A stretch of DNA of 64,000 nucleotides. Origin: Campylobacterota bacterium (lineage in GTDB: Bacteria; Campylobacterota; Campylobacteria; Campylobacterales; Sulfurovaceae). The translations under genes and the position numbers were made by a program. The stretch covers positions 521 through 64,520 of the forward strand of contig JAYEND010000099.1 in NCBI GenBank assembly GCA_034721895.1, in the 5' to 3' direction. The notes beneath the pieces were generated by a model that did not search any database, was not told where the DNA came from, and saw only the letters and a list, made by a program, of their open reading frames with translations. Shown here piece after piece: positions 6,938 through 56,504 of the stretch (position 1 is the stretch's first letter; every line of letters starts with the position of its first letter).

Positions 6938-7060
6938 CGTGTTACGTGTTACGTGTTACGTGTTACGATGGAAGTGGAGAGTTTACTCCCACCCAATCAA
7001 AGTATTGCCAGGCAATATCCACCAACACTCTTCACTCTTCACTCTTCACTCTTCACTTCA
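6938..7060 (+). repeat. composite intergenic element, copy 1: (CGTGTTA)x4.3, hairpin, (CACTCTT)x4 plus CACTTCA
   Basis: Left array at 6938-6967. Hairpin TATTGCC-a-GGCAATA at 7003-7017. Right array at 7026-7060. Same architecture as the copies at 22689, 23339 and 24457. Confidence 0.8.
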
Positions 7061-7084
7061 TAAAAACCTCCAAAGGAGTTTTTT

Positions 7085-8719
7085 ATGATCGACGTTCTTA
7101 TCATCGGCTCCGGTGGTGCAGGTCTCACCGCCGCACTCTCTGCCAAAGCCAAAGGGGCAAAAGTCCTCGTCGCAGGCAAATTCCACCCCACCAATTCTCA
7201 GACTTCCATGGCTCAGGGAGGGATCAATGCAGCCCTTGGGAATGTTGGAGAAGACTCAATAGAGAATCATATCGCCGATACCATGAAATCCTCCAGAAAC
7301 CTCTGTGATGAAACAATGGTTCGTACAATGTGCGAAAACGCGCCCGAAGCGATCAGCTGGCTTGAAGCGATCGGTGTACCTTTCAGTCGGACAGAAGAGG
7401 CGAAGATCGCGCAGCGGCAGCTGGGCGGTACCCGCAATAAGCGTGCCTGCTACAGTCAGGACTATACCGGCTTAAAAATTCTTCATACACTCTATGACAC
7501 CTGTCTCAAAGAGGGGATCGAATTTCTGGATGAGCACTACTTTCTCAACCTCATCACACAGGAGCAGGAAAATCCTAAACTTGATCCGCTGATCAAGGGA
7601 GCGACACTTCTGGAGATCGTGTCAGGAGAGGTCAAACAGATCGATGCCAAATCAGTCATCATCGCGACAGGCGGCTACTCCTCGATCTATCACGGCTTTA
7701 CGACCAATGCCTTTGGATCGACCGGTGACGGGATCTCGGCCGTGATCCGTGCAGGCGGGTATATCTCCGATATCGAGTTTGTCCAGTTCCACCCTACCGC
7801 GCTCAAAGGCTCTGCGATCCTCATCTCCGAGAGTGCCAGAGGAGAAGGAGGCTACCTGCTCAACAGCAAAGGAGAACGTTTCGTCGATGAGCTGCAACCC
7901 AGAGATATCGTCGCACGGGCCATTTACGAACAGATCGGCAATGGCGAGGAAGTTTTTCTGGATATCAGACATCTGGGAGAAGAGAAACTGATGGAGCTTC
8001 TCCCTCAGGAGGTGCATCTCTGCAAACTACATGAGCATGTCGATCCGGCCACAGAACTTATCCCCATCAAACCGGTAGCACACTATTCGATGGGCGGTAT
8101 CGATGTCAAACGCTCTCTGGAAGCAAGAGGGATCAAAGGATGTTTCGCAACAGGTGAATGCAGCAATGCGAAAGTCCACGGTGCCAACAGGCTGGGCGGC
8201 AACTCTCTTCTGGAACTGATTACTTTCGGAAAACTCGCCGGTGAAAATGCAACTGCCTATGCTACAGAAGCTGGCAACACCCCTGCAGACGATACACAGC
8301 TGAACTCTGACCGAAACTTTATCAATGGGATCTTCCATTTTACCAATCAGATCAATTTCTACGAGAAGCGTGACTTTATAGGAAAGATCTTTTATCATAA
8401 TGCCGGTATCGTCCGCAGTAAAAGCTCTCTCACTGCTGTTCTTGCCGCGATCCGCCAGATACAAAAAGAGCTCCCTTTCATGGGATTGGGAGATAAAAGC
8501 AGAGAGAATAACACTAACCTTGTCGATTTTATCGAATTTGGGAATGCTTTGGAACTCAGCGAAGTCCTGCTGGTCGGTGCCATCAGTCGCAACGAAAGTC
8601 GCGGCGCACACTACAGAGAAGATTTTCCCGAGCAGAGCGATGAACGTTATGGTGCCCATACGATCTTCTGGAAAGAGGATGGTGTCCTCTGTGCCGATTT
8701 TGAAAGGAGGTATGTATGA
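7085..8719 (+). CDS. succinate dehydrogenase/fumarate reductase flavoprotein subunit (non-classical)
   Basis: 544 aa with GSGGAGLTAAL, QFHPTA, AHYSMGG and HGANRLGGNSL. The covalent-FAD motif RSHTxxAQGG reads NSQTSMAQGG here (His replaced by Gln). Confidence 0.9.
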   Translation: MIDVLIIGSGGAGLTAALSAKAKGAKVLVAGKFHPTNSQTSMAQGGINAALGNVGEDSIENHIADTMKSSRNLCDETMVRTMCENAPEAISWLEAIGVPFSRTEEAKIAQRQLGGTRNKRACYSQDYTGLKILHTLYDTCLKEGIEFLDEHYFLNLITQEQENPKLDPLIKGATLLEIVSGEVKQIDAKSVIIATGGYSSIYHGFTTNAFGSTGDGISAVIRAGGYISDIEFVQFHPTALKGSAILISESARGEGGYLLNSKGERFVDELQPRDIVARAIYEQIGNGEEVFLDIRHLGEEKLMELLPQEVHLCKLHEHVDPATELIPIKPVAHYSMGGIDVKRSLEARGIKGCFATGECSNAKVHGANRLGGNSLLELITFGKLAGENATAYATEAGNTPADDTQLNSDRNFINGIFHFTNQINFYEKRDFIGKIFYHNAGIVRSKSSLTAVLAAIRQIQKELPFMGLGDKSRENNTNLVDFIEFGNALELSEVLLVGAISRNESRGAHYREDFPEQSDERYGAHTIFWKEDGVLCADFERRYV

Positions 8720-20678: not shown

Positions 20679-20710
20679 CAGAATTTTTGGTTATAATAAT
20701 CTGATAATTT

Positions 20711-20819
20711 CTCTCGTTCCCAACATCCTCGTTGGGAATGTATATTATAGATACTTGAATGTAAATACTACATATCATGCCCAAGTATGCATTCCCAAGC
20801 TGAAGCTTGGGAACGAGTG
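20711..20819. repeat. ~110-bp inverted-repeat element made of two GTTCCCA hairpins
   Basis: Left hairpin TTCCCAAC-atcctc-GTTGGGAA at 20717-20738. Right hairpin TTCCCAAGC-tgaa-GCTTGGGAA at 20792-20813. Outer arms CTCGTTCCCA (20713-22) / TGGGAACGAG (20808-17). Confidence 0.65.
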
Positions 20820-20835
20820 TGACGAGGAAAACAAA

Positions 20836-21594
20836 ATGACACGAATCTTTACTGACTATCAGGAGCGATGGCTGACCGGTATTGCACTCCTTGCAATTGT
20901 GGGCATTATTGGCTGGATCGACAACTTTTTTATTATGTGGGCTTTTTTGGGAGTCGTTTATATCTTTGCTTTTTACGAAGCGATGCAGCTCTTCAAACTT
21001 AGAGCCCCATCAATGTATTTCTGGGCACTGCTGCTCTGGATTTTAGCCTACTTCTACCCCAACCCCGATGATCTCTTCTTTTTGATCGCGATCATTTTTG
21101 CCAGTACCCTGGCCTATACACACAACTTTGACAAAAGACTTTTTCTGCCATTCCTCTATCCGGTCAGCGGTATCCTCTTCTTTTTGATCCTCTATCAGGA
21201 TTTCGGTATTCAGGCGATGTTCTGGCTGCTTGTCACTGTGGCAATGACAGATATGGGTGCTTTCTTTGTGGGGAAACTGATCGGACGCACCAAATTCTCG
21301 GATACCTCGCCCAACAAAACCATTGAAGGTGTCATCGGCGGGGTTGTTTTCGCCACACTGTTTGGAACCTATACCGGTCTCTATATTGCAGAGTTCTGGA
21401 CAGCTCTATTTGTGACACTCTTCACCTCGCTGGCATCTGTCTTCGGCGACCTTTTTGAAAGTTATCTCAAACGTGAAGCGGGTGTCAAAGACAGTGGAGA
21501 TCTGCTGCCTGGACATGGTGGTATCCTCGACCGGATCGATGGCTATCTCTTTGCCGCCGTTATCATGGTCATTACCCTCAGGTCATTTCTCTAA
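20836..21594 (+). CDS. cdsA: phosphatidate cytidylyltransferase CdsA
   Basis: [15 protein letters not shown]..., multi-TM, with C-terminal [28 protein letters not shown]. The ORF-track extension back to 20590 runs through the repeat element and is rejected. Confidence 0.9.
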
Positions 21595-21599
21595 GACCC

Positions 21600-22688
21600 A
21601 TGCCTGATTCGCCTGATTCGATTGTACTGCTCGGCTCAACCGGTTCAATAGGGGTCAATACCCTGGAGATCGCTTCCCGGTATAAAATTCCCATCGAAGC
21701 GCTTGTTGCCGGGAATAATATTGATCTACTCAACAAACAGATTAAAAAATACCATCCCCGTTATGTCGCTATTGCCAATGAAATACACAGGAGCCGTATC
21801 GATCATACCCATGTTTACTGCAGAGAACAGGGAATTCTGGAACTTCTGGAACAAACCCAAAGTCCGACTGTTGTCAACGCACTGGTAGGCTATGCCGGAC
21901 TGGCCCCAACCCTGAAATCCATCGAACTTGGTAAAAGAGTCGCACTTGCCAACAAAGAATCTCTGGTCGTTGGCGGGGAATTTATCGATATAGGCAAAAT
22001 TACCCCGATTGACAGTGAACACTTCGGCCTCTGGTATCTAATGAACGAGAGACCTATCAATAAACTCTATATTACTGCAAGCGGCGGTGCTTTCCGTGAC
22101 TGGAAGAGAGAAAAGATCGCTGATGCAACCTTCGCTGATGCGCTCAAACACCCCAACTGGTCAATGGGCAACAAGATCACTATCGACTCTGCAACGATGA
22201 CCAATAAACTTTTCGAACTTCTCGAAGCCAAGTGGCTCTTTGATACCAGCAATATTGATGCAGTCATCGAACGCAAATCGATCGTTCATGCCCTGGCAGA
22301 ATTCAAAGACGGCTCTACCACTGCCCACTTTGCCGGTGTGGACATGAAACTTCCTATCGCCTTTGCCTTGAGAGGAAAAGTAGAGGAGGAGATTCTTCCC
22401 CCTCTTGACCTCCTTGAGATTGGAAACCTTCAATTCGAGTCCATTTCAAAAGAAAAATATCCTATTTGGGAGATCAAAGAACATTTGCTCAAAAACCCCC
22501 ATTTGGGTGTTATCCTCAATGCCGCAAATGAAGAAGCCATCAAATCCTTCGAATCGGGAAAAAGCACTTTCTTCGGCATGGCGGATATGGTTCTCGATGC
22601 CTACAAAGAATTTGACTCTGTACATGCAAAAGACATAGGCGAAATCATAGAGATAGACAAAGAGGTGAGAAGCTATGTCAATCAATAA
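21600..22688 (+). CDS. dxr: 1-deoxy-D-xylulose-5-phosphate reductoisomerase
   Basis: 362 aa with LGSTGSIGVNTL, LANKESLV, DSEH and NWSMGNKITIDSATMTNK. Confidence 0.95.
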   Translation: MPDSPDSIVLLGSTGSIGVNTLEIASRYKIPIEALVAGNNIDLLNKQIKKYHPRYVAIANEIHRSRIDHTHVYCREQGILELLEQTQSPTVVNALVGYAGLAPTLKSIELGKRVALANKESLVVGGEFIDIGKITPIDSEHFGLWYLMNERPINKLYITASGGAFRDWKREKIADATFADALKHPNWSMGNKITIDSATMTNKLFELLEAKWLFDTSNIDAVIERKSIVHALAEFKDGSTTAHFAGVDMKLPIAFALRGKVEEEILPPLDLLEIGNLQFESISKEKYPIWEIKEHLLKNPHLGVILNAANEEAIKSFESGKSTFFGMADMVLDAYKEFDSVHAKDIGEIIEIDKEVRSYVNQ

Positions 22689-22785
22689 GTGTTCAGCGTT
22701 CAGCGTTCAGCGTTTGAGAAACAATAAAAGTATTGCAGCGCAATACATACCAACACTATTCACTATTCACTATTCACTATTCACT
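22689..22785 (+). repeat. composite intergenic element, copy 2: (GYGTTCA)x3.7, hairpin, (CACTATT)x4.6
   Basis: Left array at 22689-22714. Box AACAATAAAAG. Hairpin TATTGC-agc-GCAATA at 22731-22745. Linker CATACCAA. Right array at 22754-22785. Confidence 0.85.
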
Positions 22786-22820
22786 CAAGATAAGGACTTT
22801 CAATGAAAGTCCTTATCTTG
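22786..22820 (+). promoter_or_regulatory. perfect 15-bp hairpin sequestering SD and start codon of the downstream hydrolase gene
   Basis: CAAGATAAGGACTTT (22786-22800) pairs base-for-base with AAAGTCCTTATCTTG (22806-22820). The loop CAATG contains ATG 22803. Confidence 0.7.
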
Positions 22821-23336
22821 CACGGCTGGGGCGGAAGTGATACCCCGCACTGGCAGGCTGAACTTGCCTGCACACTGGCCAAAGACTATGGAACCGTCAG
22901 CTTTCCGCTGCTGGACAATTGCCACTTCCCAAGCAAAAACAGATGGGTACGGCAGGTTAAAGAAATTTTGGAAGATTTTAAACCCGATACAGTTGTCTGC
23001 CACTCCCTTGCCAACACCCTTTGGTTTTGGCTTTGCCAACAGGAGATGAGAACTGTTGAGAAATTGATTATGGTTTCTCCGCCAAGTCTTACAACGAACG
23101 TCGATACGATTAAAACATTTTTCCCTTGCCCCATGCCACAAATACTTTGCGCAAAAGAAACCATCATGATCGTTTCAGATAATGACCCCTATATTACGAT
23201 CAACGAAGCACAAAAACTCTCAAAGCATTATCATGCACCGCTTACGATCATTGAAAATGCAGGACACATCAATGCTGACAGCGGGTATGGAAAATGGGAA
23301 TATATCGAAAAACTCATTATAAAGAATAAGTCTTGA
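22803..23336 (+). CDS. alpha/beta serine hydrolase, RBBP9/YdeN family
   Basis: 177 aa with MKVLILHGWGGSDTPHWQ, nucleophile elbow VCHSLA, SDNDPY and AGHIN (Ser-Asp-His visible). Confidence 0.75.
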   Translation: MKVLILHGWGGSDTPHWQAELACTLAKDYGTVSFPLLDNCHFPSKNRWVRQVKEILEDFKPDTVVCHSLANTLWFWLCQQEMRTVEKLIMVSPPSLTTNVDTIKTFFPCPMPQILCAKETIMIVSDNDPYITINEAQKLSKHYHAPLTIIENAGHINADSGYGKWEYIEKLIIKNKS

Positions 23337-23338
23337 AA

Positions 23339-23410
23339 GCATTCAGCATTCAGCGTTCAGCGTTCAGAATAGAAGCATTGCAAAGCAATGCCTACCGACA
23401 CTATTCACTT
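23339..23410 (+). repeat. composite intergenic element, copy 3: (GCRTTCA)x4, hairpin, (CACTATT)x1.6
   Basis: Left array at 23339-23367. Hairpin GCATTGC-aaa-GCAATGC at 23375-23391. Linker CTACCGA. Right array at 23399-23410. Confidence 0.85.
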
Positions 23411-23411
23411 T

Positions 23412-23435
23412 CTGAGGATCAAAAATGATCCTCAG
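23412..23435 (+). promoter_or_regulatory. perfect 9-bp hairpin sequestering SD and start codon of tsaD
   Basis: CTGAGGATC (23412-20) / GATCCTCAG (23427-35). The loop AAAAAT overlaps ATG 23425. The SD GAGGA lies in the 5' arm and codons 1-4 lie in the 3' arm. Confidence 0.65.
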
Positions 23436-24444
23436 TATCGAATCAAGCTGTGACGACAGCTCTATCGCCATTACAGAAATCGCAACCAAAAAAGTTCTCT
23501 TCCACAAAAAGATTTCCCAGGAGGCAGAGCACTCCTGCTACGGCGGCGTGGTACCGGAACTGGCCAGCAGACTTCATGCGGTTGCCCTGCCTGAGATCCT
23601 AAAAGAGACGGAACCCTTCTTTTCACATCTCAAAGCCATTGCTGTCACAAACCAGCCTGGGCTTGGCGTCACACTGATGGAAGGGATCGCTATGGCAAAA
23701 ACCCTTGCTGTGCTGCTTGATATTCCACTGATAGCCGTCAATCACCTCAAAGCCCATATCTACTCTCTCTTTATAGAAAAAGAAGCCATTACACCCCTTC
23801 TTGTACTGCTGATCTCAGGAGGCCATACGCAGATCATCCGTGTCGAAAGTTTCGAAAAGATGGAGATCCTGGCCACCAGCATGGATGACAGCGTTGGAGA
23901 AAGCTTTGACAAATGTGCCAAGATGATGGGATTGGGCTACCCGGGTGGACCGGTCATAGAATCATTGGCACTACGGGGAGATGAAAATCGCTTCGACCTC
24001 CCCGTTCCTCTGCGCAACTCACCGCTGATCGCTTTCTCTCTCTCCGGCCTCAAAAATGCGGTACGCTTGCAAATCGAAAAATGCAAAACCTCCAACCAGG
24101 GAGAACTCACTGTACAGGATCAGTGCGATATTGCTGCCTCCTTCCAGAAAGCAGTTAAACTTCATCTTCTGCAAAAGAGTAAAAAGATCTTTGCAAAGGA
24201 GCCGATCAAGGAGTTTGCCATCGTCGGCGGTGCCAGTGCAAACTTCTATATCAGGGATGCCTATGATGCTCTCTGTAAACAGTATGGCAAAACCCTTCAT
24301 ACCACAGCTCTGGAATACTGTTCAGACAACGCCGCCATGGTTGGACGCTATGCCATAGAAGCCTATAAACGAGATGATTTTATCGACCCTGACAAAATCG
24401 ACATCATCAGCAATAAAAAACAGCAAAGCGGCACTCTTTTATAG
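23425..24444 (+). CDS. tsaD: tRNA N6-adenosine threonylcarbamoyltransferase TsaD
   Basis: 339 aa with [16 protein letters not shown]..., [21 protein letters not shown] and GGASAN. Confidence 0.95.
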
Positions 24445-24456
24445 CCCCCTCAACCC

Positions 24457-26896
<2,440 letters not shown>

Positions 26897-44869: not shown

Positions 44870-44945
44870 TGGCAGGCCAAGAGGGACTCGAACCCCCGGC
44901 ACCTGGTTTTGGAGACCAGTGCTCTACCAACTGAGCTATTGGCCT
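44870..44945 (-). tRNA. tRNA-Trp (CCA)
   Basis: Reverse complement AGGCCAATAGCTCAGTTGGTAGAGC...CTCCAAA...GGTTCGAGTCC...TTGGCCTGCCA. Cloverleaf checked by hand; 3' CCA encoded. Confidence 0.93.
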
Positions 44946-44963
44946 AAAAAAGAGTGGAGCTTA

Positions 44964-45116
44964 TTACAGCTTCATCTCTTTGTGAACAGTATGTTCTTTA
45001 CACCATCTGCAATATTTCTTCAGTGCAAGTTTTTCTGTTGTTGTTTTTTTATTTTTTGTGGTGTGATAGTTACGTCTTGTGCACTTCTCACAACCTAAAT
45101 GAACTGTTTCTCTCAT
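44964..45116 (-). CDS. rpmG: 50S ribosomal protein L33
   Basis: Hand-translated 50-aa ORF: [50 protein letters not shown] (CxxC...CxxC form). Confidence 0.9.
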
Positions 45117-45167
45117 TGTGTCTCCTAGACGCTAAACTTACCAGAAGCCGAAGCCTCTGAGTAAACC

Positions 45168-46376
45168 TTATGCGATTACCTTGCTTACAACACCGGCACC
45201 AACTGTTCTACCACCTTCACGGATAGCAAATCTAGTACCTTCTTCAAGTGCTACTGGAGCGATAAGCTCAACATCGATTTTAACATTATCACCTGGCATA
45301 ACCATTTCAGTACCTTCCTGAAGGACAACTGAGCCTGTTACGTCTGTTGTACGTACATAAAACTGTGGTCTGTAGTTGTTAAAGAATGGAGTGTGTCTAC
45401 CACCTTCCTCTTTAGTCAATACATAAACTTCAGCTTCGAACTTGGTATGTGGCGTGATCGAACCTGGCTTACAAAGAACCATACCTCTTTGTACAGCTTC
45501 TTTGTCGATACCACGGATAAGAACACCACAGTTGTCACCGGCTTGACCGCAATCCATCTCTTTACGGAACATTTCAACACCGGTAACTGTAGTAGTCTGA
45601 GTATCTTTGATCCCAACGATCTCGATCTTATCATCTACACATACTGTACCTCTGTCGATCTTACCGGTAACAACTGTACCGCGGCCTTGGATAGAGAAGA
45701 TATCTTCGATTGGCATCAAGAACTCTTTGTCAGTCTCTCTTACCGGCTCAGGGATATAAGTATCAACCGCATCCATAAGTTCAATAATTTTTTCTGACCA
45801 TGGTCCGAGGGTACCACTTTTGGCTTCTTCGAGTGCCTGGAATGCAGAACCGGCAATGACTGGTGTATCATCGCCCGGGAATTCATACTCTGAAAGAAGT
45901 TCTCTTACTTCCATCTCTACAAGCTCAAGCATCTCTTCTTTATCTTCGTCATCCAATTGGTCTTCTTTGTTCAAGAATACAACGATGTAAGGTACACCAA
46001 CCTGACGAGAAAGAAGGATATGCTCTCTGGTTTGTGCCATTGGACCATCAGTCGCAGCAATAACAAGGATCGCTCCATCCATTTGAGCGGCACCGGTAAT
46101 CATGTTCTTGACATAGTCGGCGTGACCTGGACAGTCAACGTGAGCATAGTGACGAATATCAGTTTCGTATTCTACGTGAGAAGTAGCGATCGTGATCCCT
46201 CTTTCTCTCTCTTCCGGAGCATTATCAATTGCATCATAATCCATAAGTGCTGTATTGTTTTTAGTTGCAAGTACAGCAGTAATTGCAGCAGTAAGTGTTG
46301 TTTTACCGTGGTCAACGTGACCGATTGTACCGATATTTACATGCGGTTTAGTTCGTTCAAATTTTTCTTTAGCCAT
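45168..46376 (-). CDS. tuf: elongation factor Tu
   Basis: 402 aa with [32 protein letters not shown] and DCPGHADY. Confidence 0.99.
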
Positions 46377-46482
46377 CTTTTTCTCCTAGCTTTATGTTTA
46401 AAATTACGGCTGATATTATATCAGGTTTTACTCAATATTCCTTGAGAATATTTTAAAGTACTCTTCGGACCCCATACCCTCT

Positions 46483-46532
46483 ATATGGACAGAACTGCTA
46501 CAGGCTGCACCTGGTAGCACTTCTGTCCATAT
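46483..46532 (-). other. ~20-bp stem-loop between tRNA-Thr(GGU) and the tuf leader
   Basis: ATATGGACAGAA (46483-94) / TTCTGTCCATAT (46521-32), plus an inner 8-bp stem with one bulge. Candidate processing or terminator structure. Confidence 0.45.
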
Positions 46533-46536
46533 GTCG

Positions 46537-46611
46537 TGGAGCCCAGAAGCGGAATTGAACCGCCGACCTCTTCCTTACCAAGGAAGTGCTCTGCCTCTGA
46601 GCTATCTGGGC
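46537..46611 (-). tRNA. tRNA-Thr (GGU)
   Basis: Reverse complement GCCCAGATAGCTCAG...CTTCC-TTGGTAA-GGAAG...GGTTCAATTCC...TCTGGGCTCCA. Confidence 0.93.
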
Positions 46612-46717
46612 ATTGTTTTATCATATTTTATATAGTAATATATCAGGTTTTTGAAAGCTTTTGAATGTGAAGTTATTTATCGTATGTTTAATGATAATTC
46701 ACACAGCTCCCAGTATA

Positions 46718-46794
<77 letters not shown>

Positions 46795-46817
46795 GTCGTT
46801 ATATATGACTCTTAAAA

Positions 46818-46903
46818 TGGTGGTGGGTGAAGGATTCGAACCTTCGAAGGTAAAAACCAGCAGATTTACAGTCTGCCCTCTTTGGCCGCTTGAGTAACCC
46901 ACC
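46818..46903 (-). tRNA. tRNA-Tyr (GUA), long variable arm
   Basis: Reverse complement GGTGGGTTACTCAAGCGG...GCAGA-CTGTAAA-TCTGC...GGTTCGAATCCTTCACCCACCACCA. Confidence 0.9.
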
Positions 46904-46953
46904 CTACCAAGTTATCATCATTGATTACTGGTCAAACACTGATAATTATTTTG

Positions 46954-47030
46954 TGGAGCTGGTGAAGGGACTTGAACCCCCGACCTGCTGATTACAAATC
47001 AGCTGCTCTAGCCAACTGAGCTACACCAGC
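46954..47030 (-). tRNA. tRNA-Thr (UGU)
   Basis: Reverse complement GCTGGTGTAGCTCAGTTGG...GCTGA-TTTGTAA-TCAGC...GGTTCAAGTCC...CACCAGCTCCA. Confidence 0.93.
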
Positions 47031-55989: not shown

Positions 55990-56009
55990 CTTTTATTATC
56001 CTTCTTCGT

Positions 56010-56073
56010 GTAGGGTGCGTACTCACGCACCTTAAATTTAATATATGTATTGGTACGTGAGTACGCACCCTAC
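56010..56073. repeat. REP doublet (REPIN-like), second copy: 22-bp arms, 1 mismatch, 20-nt spacer
   Basis: GTAGGGTGCGTACTCACGCACC (56010-31) / GGTACGTGAGTACGCACCCTAC (56052-73). The moaE stop (56070-72) is the CTA of the right arm. Confidence 0.75.
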
Positions 56074-56504
56074 ATTAATAACCCAGCACCATCCATCGGC
56101 GTGCTGCGATCAGCTGCATAGATTCTTTTTCCATTCACAACATCATATTTCCAGATAGGGGCATTGGCTTTGAAATCTTCGACAAATTCATCGATCAGTT
56201 CAAGTGCCACTCTACGTTTTGGGGAAAATACTGCCGAGATATAGGAGGAAGTGTGTATCGGAACATTTCCCATCGCGTGGGCCATTTTAACGATCGCACC
56301 CTTTTTGGCTGCCCTCTCCTGCCATTCATCGAACCATTTCTGAAGAATCGGCTCATAAATATCAAAACTGAGTGCCTCTATCCCATTCTCTGCCCGTATC
56401 GTACCGACAAAAGGGATATAGGCACCATAGTTCGATTCAGCCTGTTCATCCAGCCATCTGCCAAAGATCTCTTTGACATTCAGCGGCCCCTGATAGAGTT
56501 CCAT
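56070..56504 (-). CDS. moaE: molybdopterin synthase catalytic subunit MoaE
   Basis: 144 aa with ...GAYIPFVGTIR and APIWKYD. Confidence 0.9.
   Translation of the reverse strand: MELYQGPLNVKEIFGRWLDEQAESNYGAYIPFVGTIRAENGIEALSFDIYEPILQKWFDEWQERAAKKGAIVKMAHAMGNVPIHTSSYISAVFSPKRRVALELIDEFVEDFKANAPIWKYDVVNGKRIYAADRSTPMDGAGLLM

Follow-up and report, generated by a model that had tools for sequence, protein, structure and literature searches.

In a 64,000-nucleotide stretch of a Sulfurovaceae contig (Sulfurovum-like Campylobacterota bacterium, JAYEND010000099.1; hereafter the window), the start codon of a gene for an RBBP9/YdeN-family serine hydrolase lies in the loop of a perfect 15-bp hairpin, immediately downstream of a repeat element that separates the gene from dxr. 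The element consists of two heptamer arrays around a palindrome, and a short open reading frame (ORF) bridges it, beginning inside the end of dxr and ending on the hydrolase start codon. A coupling relay is the most economical reading of this arrangement. With a little better than even confidence, we take the hairpin to be the locked initiation region of a translationally coupled junction, which ribosomes translating the bridging ORF would melt and at which they would re-initiate. All evidence presented here is computational, and gene starts follow from simple ORF rules.

The initial annotation of this DNA had proposed that a hairpin buries the Shine-Dalgarno sequence (SD) and ATG of the hydrolase gene, and direct reading bears this out. 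The arms CAAGATAAGGACTTT and AAAGTCCTTATCTTG (stem at 22786-22820; Table 1) are exact reverse complements, the SD AAGGA (22792-22796, 6 nt 5' of the ATG) lies within the 5' arm, and the ATG occupies the loop. At the DNA level the symmetry extends to a 17+1+17 palindrome over the same positions. It is the longest perfect inverted repeat of the 64-kb window, where 100 shuffles gave a mean longest stem of 9.1 and a maximum of 14. Folding with RNAfold, a check named in the initial annotation, places the helix in both the minimum free energy (MFE) and the centroid structures (z = -4.0 in a 181-nt context), and the 15-16 bp stem alone has a predicted free energy of about -22 kcal/mol at 37 C. Three assemblies made independently from different runs contain the same 35-mer, and the hairpin is therefore not an assembly artefact. 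The hydrolase start, which had been held to be beyond doubt, is indeed sound, since the Pfam Ser_hydrolase profile aligns from its position 1 at residue 3 of the protein.

The hairpin has no match among described RNA families: a scan of the whole window with Rfam 15 at gathering thresholds returned tRNAs only. Nor does it have the form of an intrinsic (Rho-independent) terminator, which would be a G+C-rich stem with a U-tract on the transcribed strand: CACGGCTGG follows the 3' arm, and a terminator scan of 21500-24700 returned no plus-strand terminator-like site. A crude scan, which covers AT-rich Campylobacterota promoters in part, found no plus-strand sigma-70-like site in the element or between dxr and tsaD, the gene that follows the hydrolase gene.

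We compared this junction across 80 loci from species-representative genomes, together with several loci obtained through exact-protein look-ups. These fall into three groups. About 40 species lack a spacer: the end of dxr runs 17 or 11 nt into the hydrolase gene, whose product begins MSTQDKVLIL; a second group carries short spacers or inserts of the repetitive extragenic palindromic (REP) type and has no start hairpin; and a third carries heptamer arrays in the spacer together with the start hairpin. The next junction is also tight in many of these genomes, with the hydrolase and tsaD genes overlapping as ATGA in 42/80 species. Across nine loci of the third group that share the same geometry, 94.8% of the cells of the 15-bp helix are paired and 5/15 pairs have changed on both sides (11 cells). 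In 500 column shuffles this covariation score was never matched, and sliding the partner by 1-3 columns as a control gave 36-55% pairing. The changed segments (5' arm/3' arm) read GGACTTT/AAAGTCC in the window, GGGTTTT/AAAACCC in L072, GGAGTT/AACTCC in L035, CAATAT/ATATTG in L204 and CAGAAT/ATTCTG in L209, and L210 and L117 provide further covarying examples. Pairing is retained across species whose hydrolase proteins are 73-78% identical. Orthologous complementarity, another check named in the initial annotation, is thus kept through changes in both arms, including an altered codon 3 and synonymous changes of Ile and Leu codons.

The hairpin had also been suggested to be an inverted duplication of the coding 5' end created on insertion of the element, which it may be. 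The unusual perfection of the stems (about 1% G.U) fits a templated origin. However, CAAGATAAG, which makes up the outer half of the 5' arm, corresponds to the QDK codons with which element-free species encode their long-form N-terminus, and the arm therefore did not arise wholly de novo from insertion. In the long N-terminus, the QDK codons are still complementary to the LIL codons at 5.3/9 positions, compared with 2.3-3.3 in controls. Two histories are conceivable: either MSTQDKVLIL derives from a hairpin arm after loss of the element, or the hairpin was built on the QDK codons by a 14-nt templated insertion (GGACTTTCAATGAA).

The element itself has a regular layout, namely a variable left heptamer array, AATAAAAGC, a covarying palindrome (e.g. 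GCATTGC-NNN-GCAATGC), ATACCAACA, and a G-free right heptamer array. Four copies are found in the window, all on the plus strand and each 5' of a plus-strand gene. At the hydrolase gene, the last base of the CACTATT array is 22785, which leaves 17 nt to the ATG, and the stem opens at the next base. Among paralogous copies, similarity ends exactly at the border between array and stem, and therefore the stem is a site-specific companion of the element and not part of its repeated sequence. The earlier view that links the hairpin to a composite element is supported as regards context, since the hairpin directly abuts the array.

Several further identities and properties of the element were considered. 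The palindrome is not a REP or REPIN of the GTAG- or CGTC-tagged kind: the tag is mostly absent at its foot, and among the window copies CTAC occurs in copy C only. The core and flank read GCAATAC/ATACC, GCAATAT/CCACC and GCAATGC/CTACC in window copies, with a further flank CTGCC, and the flank is mostly GCATACC elsewhere. A long-range helix between left and right arrays is not a general feature, as the arrays are complementary in L032, L058 and L068, not in the window copies, and the helix is absent from the MFE structure. Nor does the element encode a conserved micro-protein, since two core frames are used (NKSIAxQCxPTLFT and IKALQxNAYQHYSL) and neither has a Pfam match. Candidate flanking direct repeats (TCAATAAG / TCAAGATAAG) resemble a target-site duplication weakly. 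The searchable literature yielded no earlier description of this Sulfurovum element, and most subscription journals lie outside its coverage, so the absence is not proof; the repeat family looks undescribed.

Read on the minus strand, the core palindrome (22730-22746, and likewise in all copies) is followed by TTTTATT and scores as intrinsic-terminator-like; on the plus strand, where AATAAAA precedes it, it does not. The element may pass transcription one way and stop it the other. A second, related element with the palindrome AAAGC-TTTCT..AGAAA-GCATACC lies head-to-head in reverse orientation 5' of coaD and some other genes (L085, L097, L103, L114, L172, L181, L183, L200). Its flank is GCTTTTATAAT, with a TATAAT-like box just 5' of the ATG of a small ORF.

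Within the window, start hairpins also follow the element at tsaD and at a flavoprotein gene (Table 1). A core-pattern scan of vent metagenome contigs, run with a single core variant, gave at least 120 loci, and among the matches listed a start-codon stem follows the right array in about 16 gene families, including coaD, hisH, hisA, hisG, murB, purF, dnaB, ruvB, an apaH-like gene and tsaD. Three stem designs occur: a custom stem whose 3' arm consists of the gene's first codons, a stem of the form ATCATCAGGAG..CTCCTGATGAT, and a generic module GAAAATCTCC..GGAGATTTTC-ATG. The SD and/or the start codon is covered in every design. Compensatory change is seen here as well. Orthologues of hisH carry CCTATCATCT/AGATGATAGG or CCGATCATCT/AGATGATCGG, a change of the coaD start from ATG to GTG is matched by CAT to CAC in the 5' arm, and murB also compensates from orthologue to orthologue.

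Of 72 starts next to an element, 46% are covered by a stem of 10 bp or more without interruption, compared with 4.0% of the 1504 remaining starts at these loci (Mann-Whitney p = 3e-19), and the mean local MFE is -15.4 kcal/mol at element-adjacent starts versus -9.5 kcal/mol in controls. Strong stems after the array are found in 41% of cases before a co-oriented coding sequence and in 14% before a convergent gene (p = 0.026); classing downstream context by open frames on either strand is noisy (58/122 scored as both), and the significance is modest. The ORF-based starts missed several GTG and TTG starts and genes at contig ends and took in some spurious ORFs, so that the hairpin and relay counts are approximate and probably conservative for both fractions.

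The second line of evidence comes from reading frames. The bridging ORF (22675-22806) is the sole frame open over the spacer. Its ATG lies 11 nt before the dxr stop, it reads through the 5' arm, and it terminates at a TGA (22804-22806) that shares two bases with the hydrolase ATG at 22803 (ATGA). This frame is shut off from both neighbours, by the dxr stop at 22686 and by stops in the gene frame at -78 and -12, with the bridging ORF in the +1 frame. Its SD and ATG are held in the last dxr codons (KEVRSYV), and GAGGTG and ATG 22675 are the hydrolase's own start signals in element-free species. Two further relays cross element copies in the window (Table 1); the one at the flavoprotein gene, listed as the third, ends with its TGA overlapping the ATG at 7085 of the flavoprotein gene (ATGA).

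Of the 44 hairpin-bearing junctions, 39 have an open frame that leads from the core to a stop located at -6 to +12 of the start, versus 21.7% in length-matched controls (p = 2e-20). Since the element is poor in stops by its own composition, stricter tests were added. The third frame of the core is closed by TAA or TAG, and the core-to-start register is never that frame in 40/40 credible genes from about 16 families. Within each gene family, core-to-start distances differ by multiples of 3 only (53/74/107, 51/72/78/81, 57/90 and 80/83). The dxr-hydrolase spacer is a multiple of 3 in 11/12 element loci (8/9 distinct lengths, p = 1e-3), and right arrays of 1 or 4 units, which are 21 nt apart, are enriched before genes (32/38 vs 47/82, p = 0.004). 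Bridging ORFs start at offset -1 to the upstream stop in nine cases, and most others at -11 to +5. The encoded peptide is not conserved, and it seems to be translation of the relay that matters and not its product.

Three side observations concern these frames and arrays. The dxr C-terminal codons K-E-V-R-x-Y-V (AAA GAG GTR AGA nnn TAT GTn; 22653-22677 in the window, and in orthologues) are conserved genus-wide and, read in another frame, contain both the SD (GAGGT) and the start codon ATG used by the next cistron. AATGAGN-type left arrays (L058, L068, L072, L101, L107, L109, L179) carry ATGA in every unit, that is, a stop with an overlapping start, in all three frames; at these loci the upstream gene often ends at an array TGA, and the ATG that overlaps this TGA opens the bridging ORF, as though the array reset the reading frame whichever frame arrives. 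A nested insert of about 33 nt, TACCCCAAGGGCACTTGTCmCTTCGGTCGGGCGCAC, lies within the right arrays of unrelated loci (L059, at about 2440-2475, L102, L130, L138, L144, L180, L194); it is a multiple of 3 nt long and leaves the bridging frame open.

Spacers between dxr and the hydrolase gene that are of REP type and free of arrays (L004-L083) also tend to preserve frame: 14/21 are multiples of 3 and residue class 1 is nearly absent, and translation across these spacers too may be constrained.

Table 1 Features of the element-bearing junctions in the window.
Feature	Positions	Strand	Remarks
dxr (DXP reductoisomerase)	21600..22688	+	stop TAA 22686-22688; from the ORF list, Pfam DXP_reductoisom on orthologous neighbours
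SD GAGGTG	22662..22667	+	7 nt before ATG 22675
Bridging ORF, 43 codons	22675..22806	+	MSINKCSAFSVQRLRNNKSIAAQYIPTLFTIHYSLFTQDKDFQ then stop; no Pfam match
Left heptamer array (GTTCAGC) x3.4	22691..22714	+	stop-free in every forward frame
Core palindrome GTATTGC-AGC-GCAATAC	22730..22746	+	AATAAAA 5', ATACCAACA 3'; stem covaries among copies
Right heptamer array (CACTATT) x4.6	22754..22785	+	G-free; no stops in 3 forward frames
5' arm of start hairpin	22786..22800	+	contains SD AAGGA; codes QDKDF in the bridging ORF
Loop CAATG	22801..22805	+	hydrolase start codon ATG at 22803-22805
3' arm of start hairpin	22806..22820	+	hydrolase codons 2-6 (KVLIL)
RBBP9/YdeN-family serine hydrolase gene, 177 aa	22803..23336	+	PF06821, E = 4e-34
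Second relay, 31 codons	23333..23428	+	TTG overlaps hydrolase stop (TTGA); TGA overlaps tsaD ATG (ATGA); crosses copy C
Element copy C	23338..23409	+	
Second start hairpin (tsaD)	23412..23435	+	CTGAGGATCA-aaaa-TGATCCTCAG; 3' arm is TG of ATG and tsaD codons 2-4; after copy C
tsaD	23425..24444	+	ATG at 23425
Fourth element copy (D), core and CACTCTT-type array	24465..24523	+	after tsaD, before gyrB (ATG 24582)
Third relay, 54 codons	6924..7088	+	start 1 nt after upstream stop (TAAAATG); crosses copy A
Element copy A	6938..7057	+	arrays 6938-6967 and 7026-7057
Third start hairpin (flavoprotein gene)	7058..7088	+	TCATAAAAACCTCC-aaa-GGAGTTTTTTATGA; SD (GGAG) and ATG in 3' arm; after copy A

The anatomy, the covariation and the frame statistics are direct observations, and a translational relay would account for them as follows. 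The element, as array, palindrome and array, would have pushed apart the dxr/hydrolase and hydrolase/tsaD pairs, whose members natively overlap, as they do in most Sulfurovum species. At the hydrolase gene, the helix would bar freely arriving 30S subunits from the start; the general idea of the initial annotation, a start that is blocked to free initiation until the stem is melted or bypassed, is supported. Ribosomes would instead go on through the bridging ORF, entering from the old SD and ATG in the end of dxr, and would unwind the helix over the hydrolase SD and AUG. Termination on AUGA would leave the start codon in the decoding centre, where the hydrolase could be initiated by the same ribosome or by a newly recruited one using the transiently open site. 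Hydrolase synthesis would thereby be kept tied to dxr translation over 114 nt of inserted repeat, a dependence on relay translation that we infer from the sequence. The arms themselves probably arise and are kept perfect through templated events, by fold-back or template switching on an earlier short quasi-palindrome, and selection would retain them.

We propose more tentatively, as an idea with the balance of probability somewhat against it, that Sulfurovum carries an undescribed dispersed intercistronic element built for translation. Such an element would combine stop-free arrays (or stop-and-restart arrays, in the AATGAGN type) and a palindrome with relay mini-ORFs coupled at both ends, a custom helix that locks the start, an obligatory ribosome hand-over, and possibly an on/off switch by slippage. 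A slippage switch of downstream translation is possible because each gain or loss of a heptamer shifts the relay frame by one.

Several points weigh against a relay. Before gyrB, copy D lacks both start hairpin and bridging ORF and is the lone exception in the window, and about half of the element copies are not located before a co-oriented gene. The element is intrinsically stop-poor, as the arrays have no stops and the core is open in 2/3 frames, and the open-frame signal is thus partly compositional; it is from frame statistics that translation of the bridging ORF is deduced. Many loci are orthologous, and the effective sample size is below the counts. The stems are almost purely Watson-Crick (about 1% G.U), a composition that does not tell upkeep at the RNA level from upkeep at the DNA level; the asymmetry between G.U and A.C mismatches, tried as a discriminator, is uninformative at 5 vs 3. 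Finally, structure just 3' of a stop codon has been reported to lower re-initiation (PMC7518266). The mechanism class itself is established, in the form of RNA-unfolding and termination-reinitiation models (PMC12548453, PMC6728339).

The strongest rival is that the palindrome is a DNA-level by-product without an RNA role. It would have originated by fold-back or template switching at or after arrival of the element, would be maintained by quasi-palindrome correction, and would be tolerated since coupling expresses the gene. The stems contain 506 Watson-Crick pairs and 18 mismatches, with G.U not favoured over A.C, and such near-pure pairing points to templated formation and repair. In the window copy the match extends even to positions unable to pair in RNA (17+1+17), its arms, like those elsewhere, are tailored to unrelated coding sequences in a way that is hard to reach by point mutation, and template switching can yield both-arm changes without selection. 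A pure by-product nevertheless fits poorly with pairing that is kept, at 5 covarying positions, between species with proteins only 73-78% identical, and with strong stems that occur mainly where a co-oriented gene start follows and always cover the SD and/or the start. Moreover, element-free orthologues are stemless, with remnant complementarity down to 5.3/9, and this decay indicates that the palindrome is not self-maintaining once its context is lost. We regard a by-product as unlikely, if still a serious contender.

Improbable, in our judgement, is that the hairpin is a trans-acted switch or processing site, cut by RNase III so as to part the cistrons or set the stability of the mRNA, or opened or closed by a CsrA-type protein, S1, a cold-shock protein or a small RNA, perhaps recruited through the single-stranded G-free array. 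Perfect duplexes of 10-20 bp within operon mRNAs, a GGA motif in the arm and an unstructured CACUAUU array immediately 5' would suit such factors, and there are precedents in Correia elements cut by RNase III and ERIC (enterobacterial repetitive intergenic consensus) elements modulating mRNA decay (PMC10969869), as well as in Beggiatoaceae heptamer arrays near starts, proposed as sites for post-transcriptional regulators (PMC4679880). This explanation, however, leaves the register, the multiples-of-3 spacing and the stop/start overlaps at both ends unaccounted for. The arms of different genes are unrelated and share no recognition sequence beyond the duplex shape, the heptamer sequence differs among copies, and there is no Rfam match.

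The initial annotation had offered an RNA thermometer, in which melting of the helix frees the SD and AUG, and this we find very hard to credit. The SD and AUG are sequestered, and the organism presumably lives in the steep thermal gradients of vents. The helix, however, with about -22 kcal/mol at 37 C, is predicted to remain the MFE fold up to 85 C, and between 10 and 65 C the predicted accessibility of the initiation region hardly changes. Thermometers such as ROSE or fourU typically contain mismatches and wobbles, which this stem lacks; no Rfam family matches, and the same design stands before the housekeeping genes tsaD, coaD, dnaB and murB. Equally remote is a DNA binding or recombination site, either the operator of a dimeric repressor or the hairpin site of a mobile element's recombinase or transposase: a perfect 35-bp palindrome bordering directly on a repeat that is presumably mobile invites the idea, but its sequence is particular to each site and covaries, where a protein recognition site would be conserved; one half is coding sequence, constrained by the hydrolase itself, and paralogous element copies in one genome diverge exactly at the array/hairpin border.

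The relay works like a known kind of mechanism, coupling with a sequestered start, and what would be new is a dispersed repeat as the coupling partner. In described translational coupling (AUGA/UGAUG; phage f1 VII-IX, MS2 coat-lysis; PMC12548453, PMC6728339), the upstream stop likewise overlaps the next start, and a hairpin silences a downstream ribosome-binding site that the upstream ribosome must traverse. Here, in contrast, the upstream partner is a frame of 25-61 codons in a repeated spacer, coupled at both ends, and the stem is a perfect, tailor-made helix of 10-20 bp repeated at many unrelated junctions. Salmonella mgtC-mgtQ-mgtB (PMC8092293) is similar in that translation of an intercistronic short ORF sets access to a structured downstream start. 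However, mgtQ is a single-locus device with alternative stem-loops and specific codons, whereas the Sulfurovum arrangement has no alternative structure, an unconserved peptide (two element frames) and a dispersed repeat.

Among mobile or repeated sequences, Rickettsia palindromic elements and in-frame miniature inverted-repeat transposable elements (PMC10969869) are also dispersed repeats with stop-free frames that can be tolerated in translated regions. The Rickettsia elements join the host protein, whereas here a separate mini-cistron lies between genes, with heptamer arrays (complementary to each other in L032, L058 and L068) in place of clear terminal inverted repeats, and with weak candidates for a target-site duplication. 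Correia and ERIC elements (PMC10969869) resemble the present element as operon-transcribed repeats that fold and alter expression of their neighbours. Those elements fold on themselves by pairing of their terminal inverted repeats and act via RNase III/RNase E or promoters, whereas the helix described here pairs custom sequence at the element's edge with host coding sequence.

Cyanobacterial STRR (short tandemly repeated repetitive) heptamers are another type of intergenic tandem heptamer array next to start codons. Intergenic tandem TAACTGA heptamers by start codons are reported in Beggiatoaceae, Cyanobacteria and Bacteroidetes (PMC4679880), where 2-6 units lie a few nt 5' of starts of genes with unrelated functions, as our arrays do, and a translational role was proposed for them. 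TAACTGA stops every frame, whereas the arrays here are stop-free on the sense strand, vary in heptamer sequence among copies and flank a conserved palindrome followed by a start-codon hairpin.

GTAG- and CGTC-tagged REP/REPIN palindromes have been reported in Sulfurovum sp. NBC37-1 (PMC3733652). They share with our core a short conserved intergenic palindrome and the genus, and in other species these junctions harbour true GTAG REPs; the core described here differs in being mostly tagless (flank GCATACC), flanked by arrays and oriented to the downstream gene. The window also contains an inverted pair of GTAG-tagged REPs at 56002-56081 (GTAGGGTGCGTACTCACGCACC ... GGTACGTGAGTACGCACCCTAC), a REPIN-like doublet. 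REPs of the same kind, a hairpin followed by CCCTACGG, lie in the dxr-hydrolase and hydrolase-tsaD spacers of other Sulfurovum species.

If the relay operates as proposed, bacterial repeats would be more than passive spacers, terminators or promoters: a family would be threaded into the translation path of operons, with host starts locked and usable only by ribosomes delivered via the element. It would also be a natural, many-fold replicated test bed for the mechanism of coupling (RNA unfolding versus 30S/70S re-initiation), spanning graded stem lengths, loops with or without an SD, and overlaps such as -4, -1 and +8. Heptamer slippage could then tune or switch single genes within operons. The arrangement raises the question of how inverted copies of 10-20 nt of coding sequence originate beside the element.

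On the practical side, short-read assemblies break at these elements, and gene callers will be misled over starts in Campylobacterota metagenome-assembled genomes. Three independent short-read assemblies (L001-L003) all end inside the CACTATT array, 44-47 nt 5' of the hydrolase gene, and these contig ends show the elements fragmenting metagenome assemblies.

Two other regions of the window carry inverted repeats. The spacer upstream of cdsA (ATG 20836) contains two hairpins of a further repeat type, at 20703-20727 and 20792-20818 (GTTCCCAAC..GTTGGGAA and TTCCCAAGCT-ga-AGCTTGGGAACGAG), with a comparable TTCCC...GGGAACGAG hairpin in metagenome locus L090. On the minus strand, a cluster of five tRNAs (44873-47030) is adjoined by a near-perfect inverted repeat of 19 bp (46483-46532).

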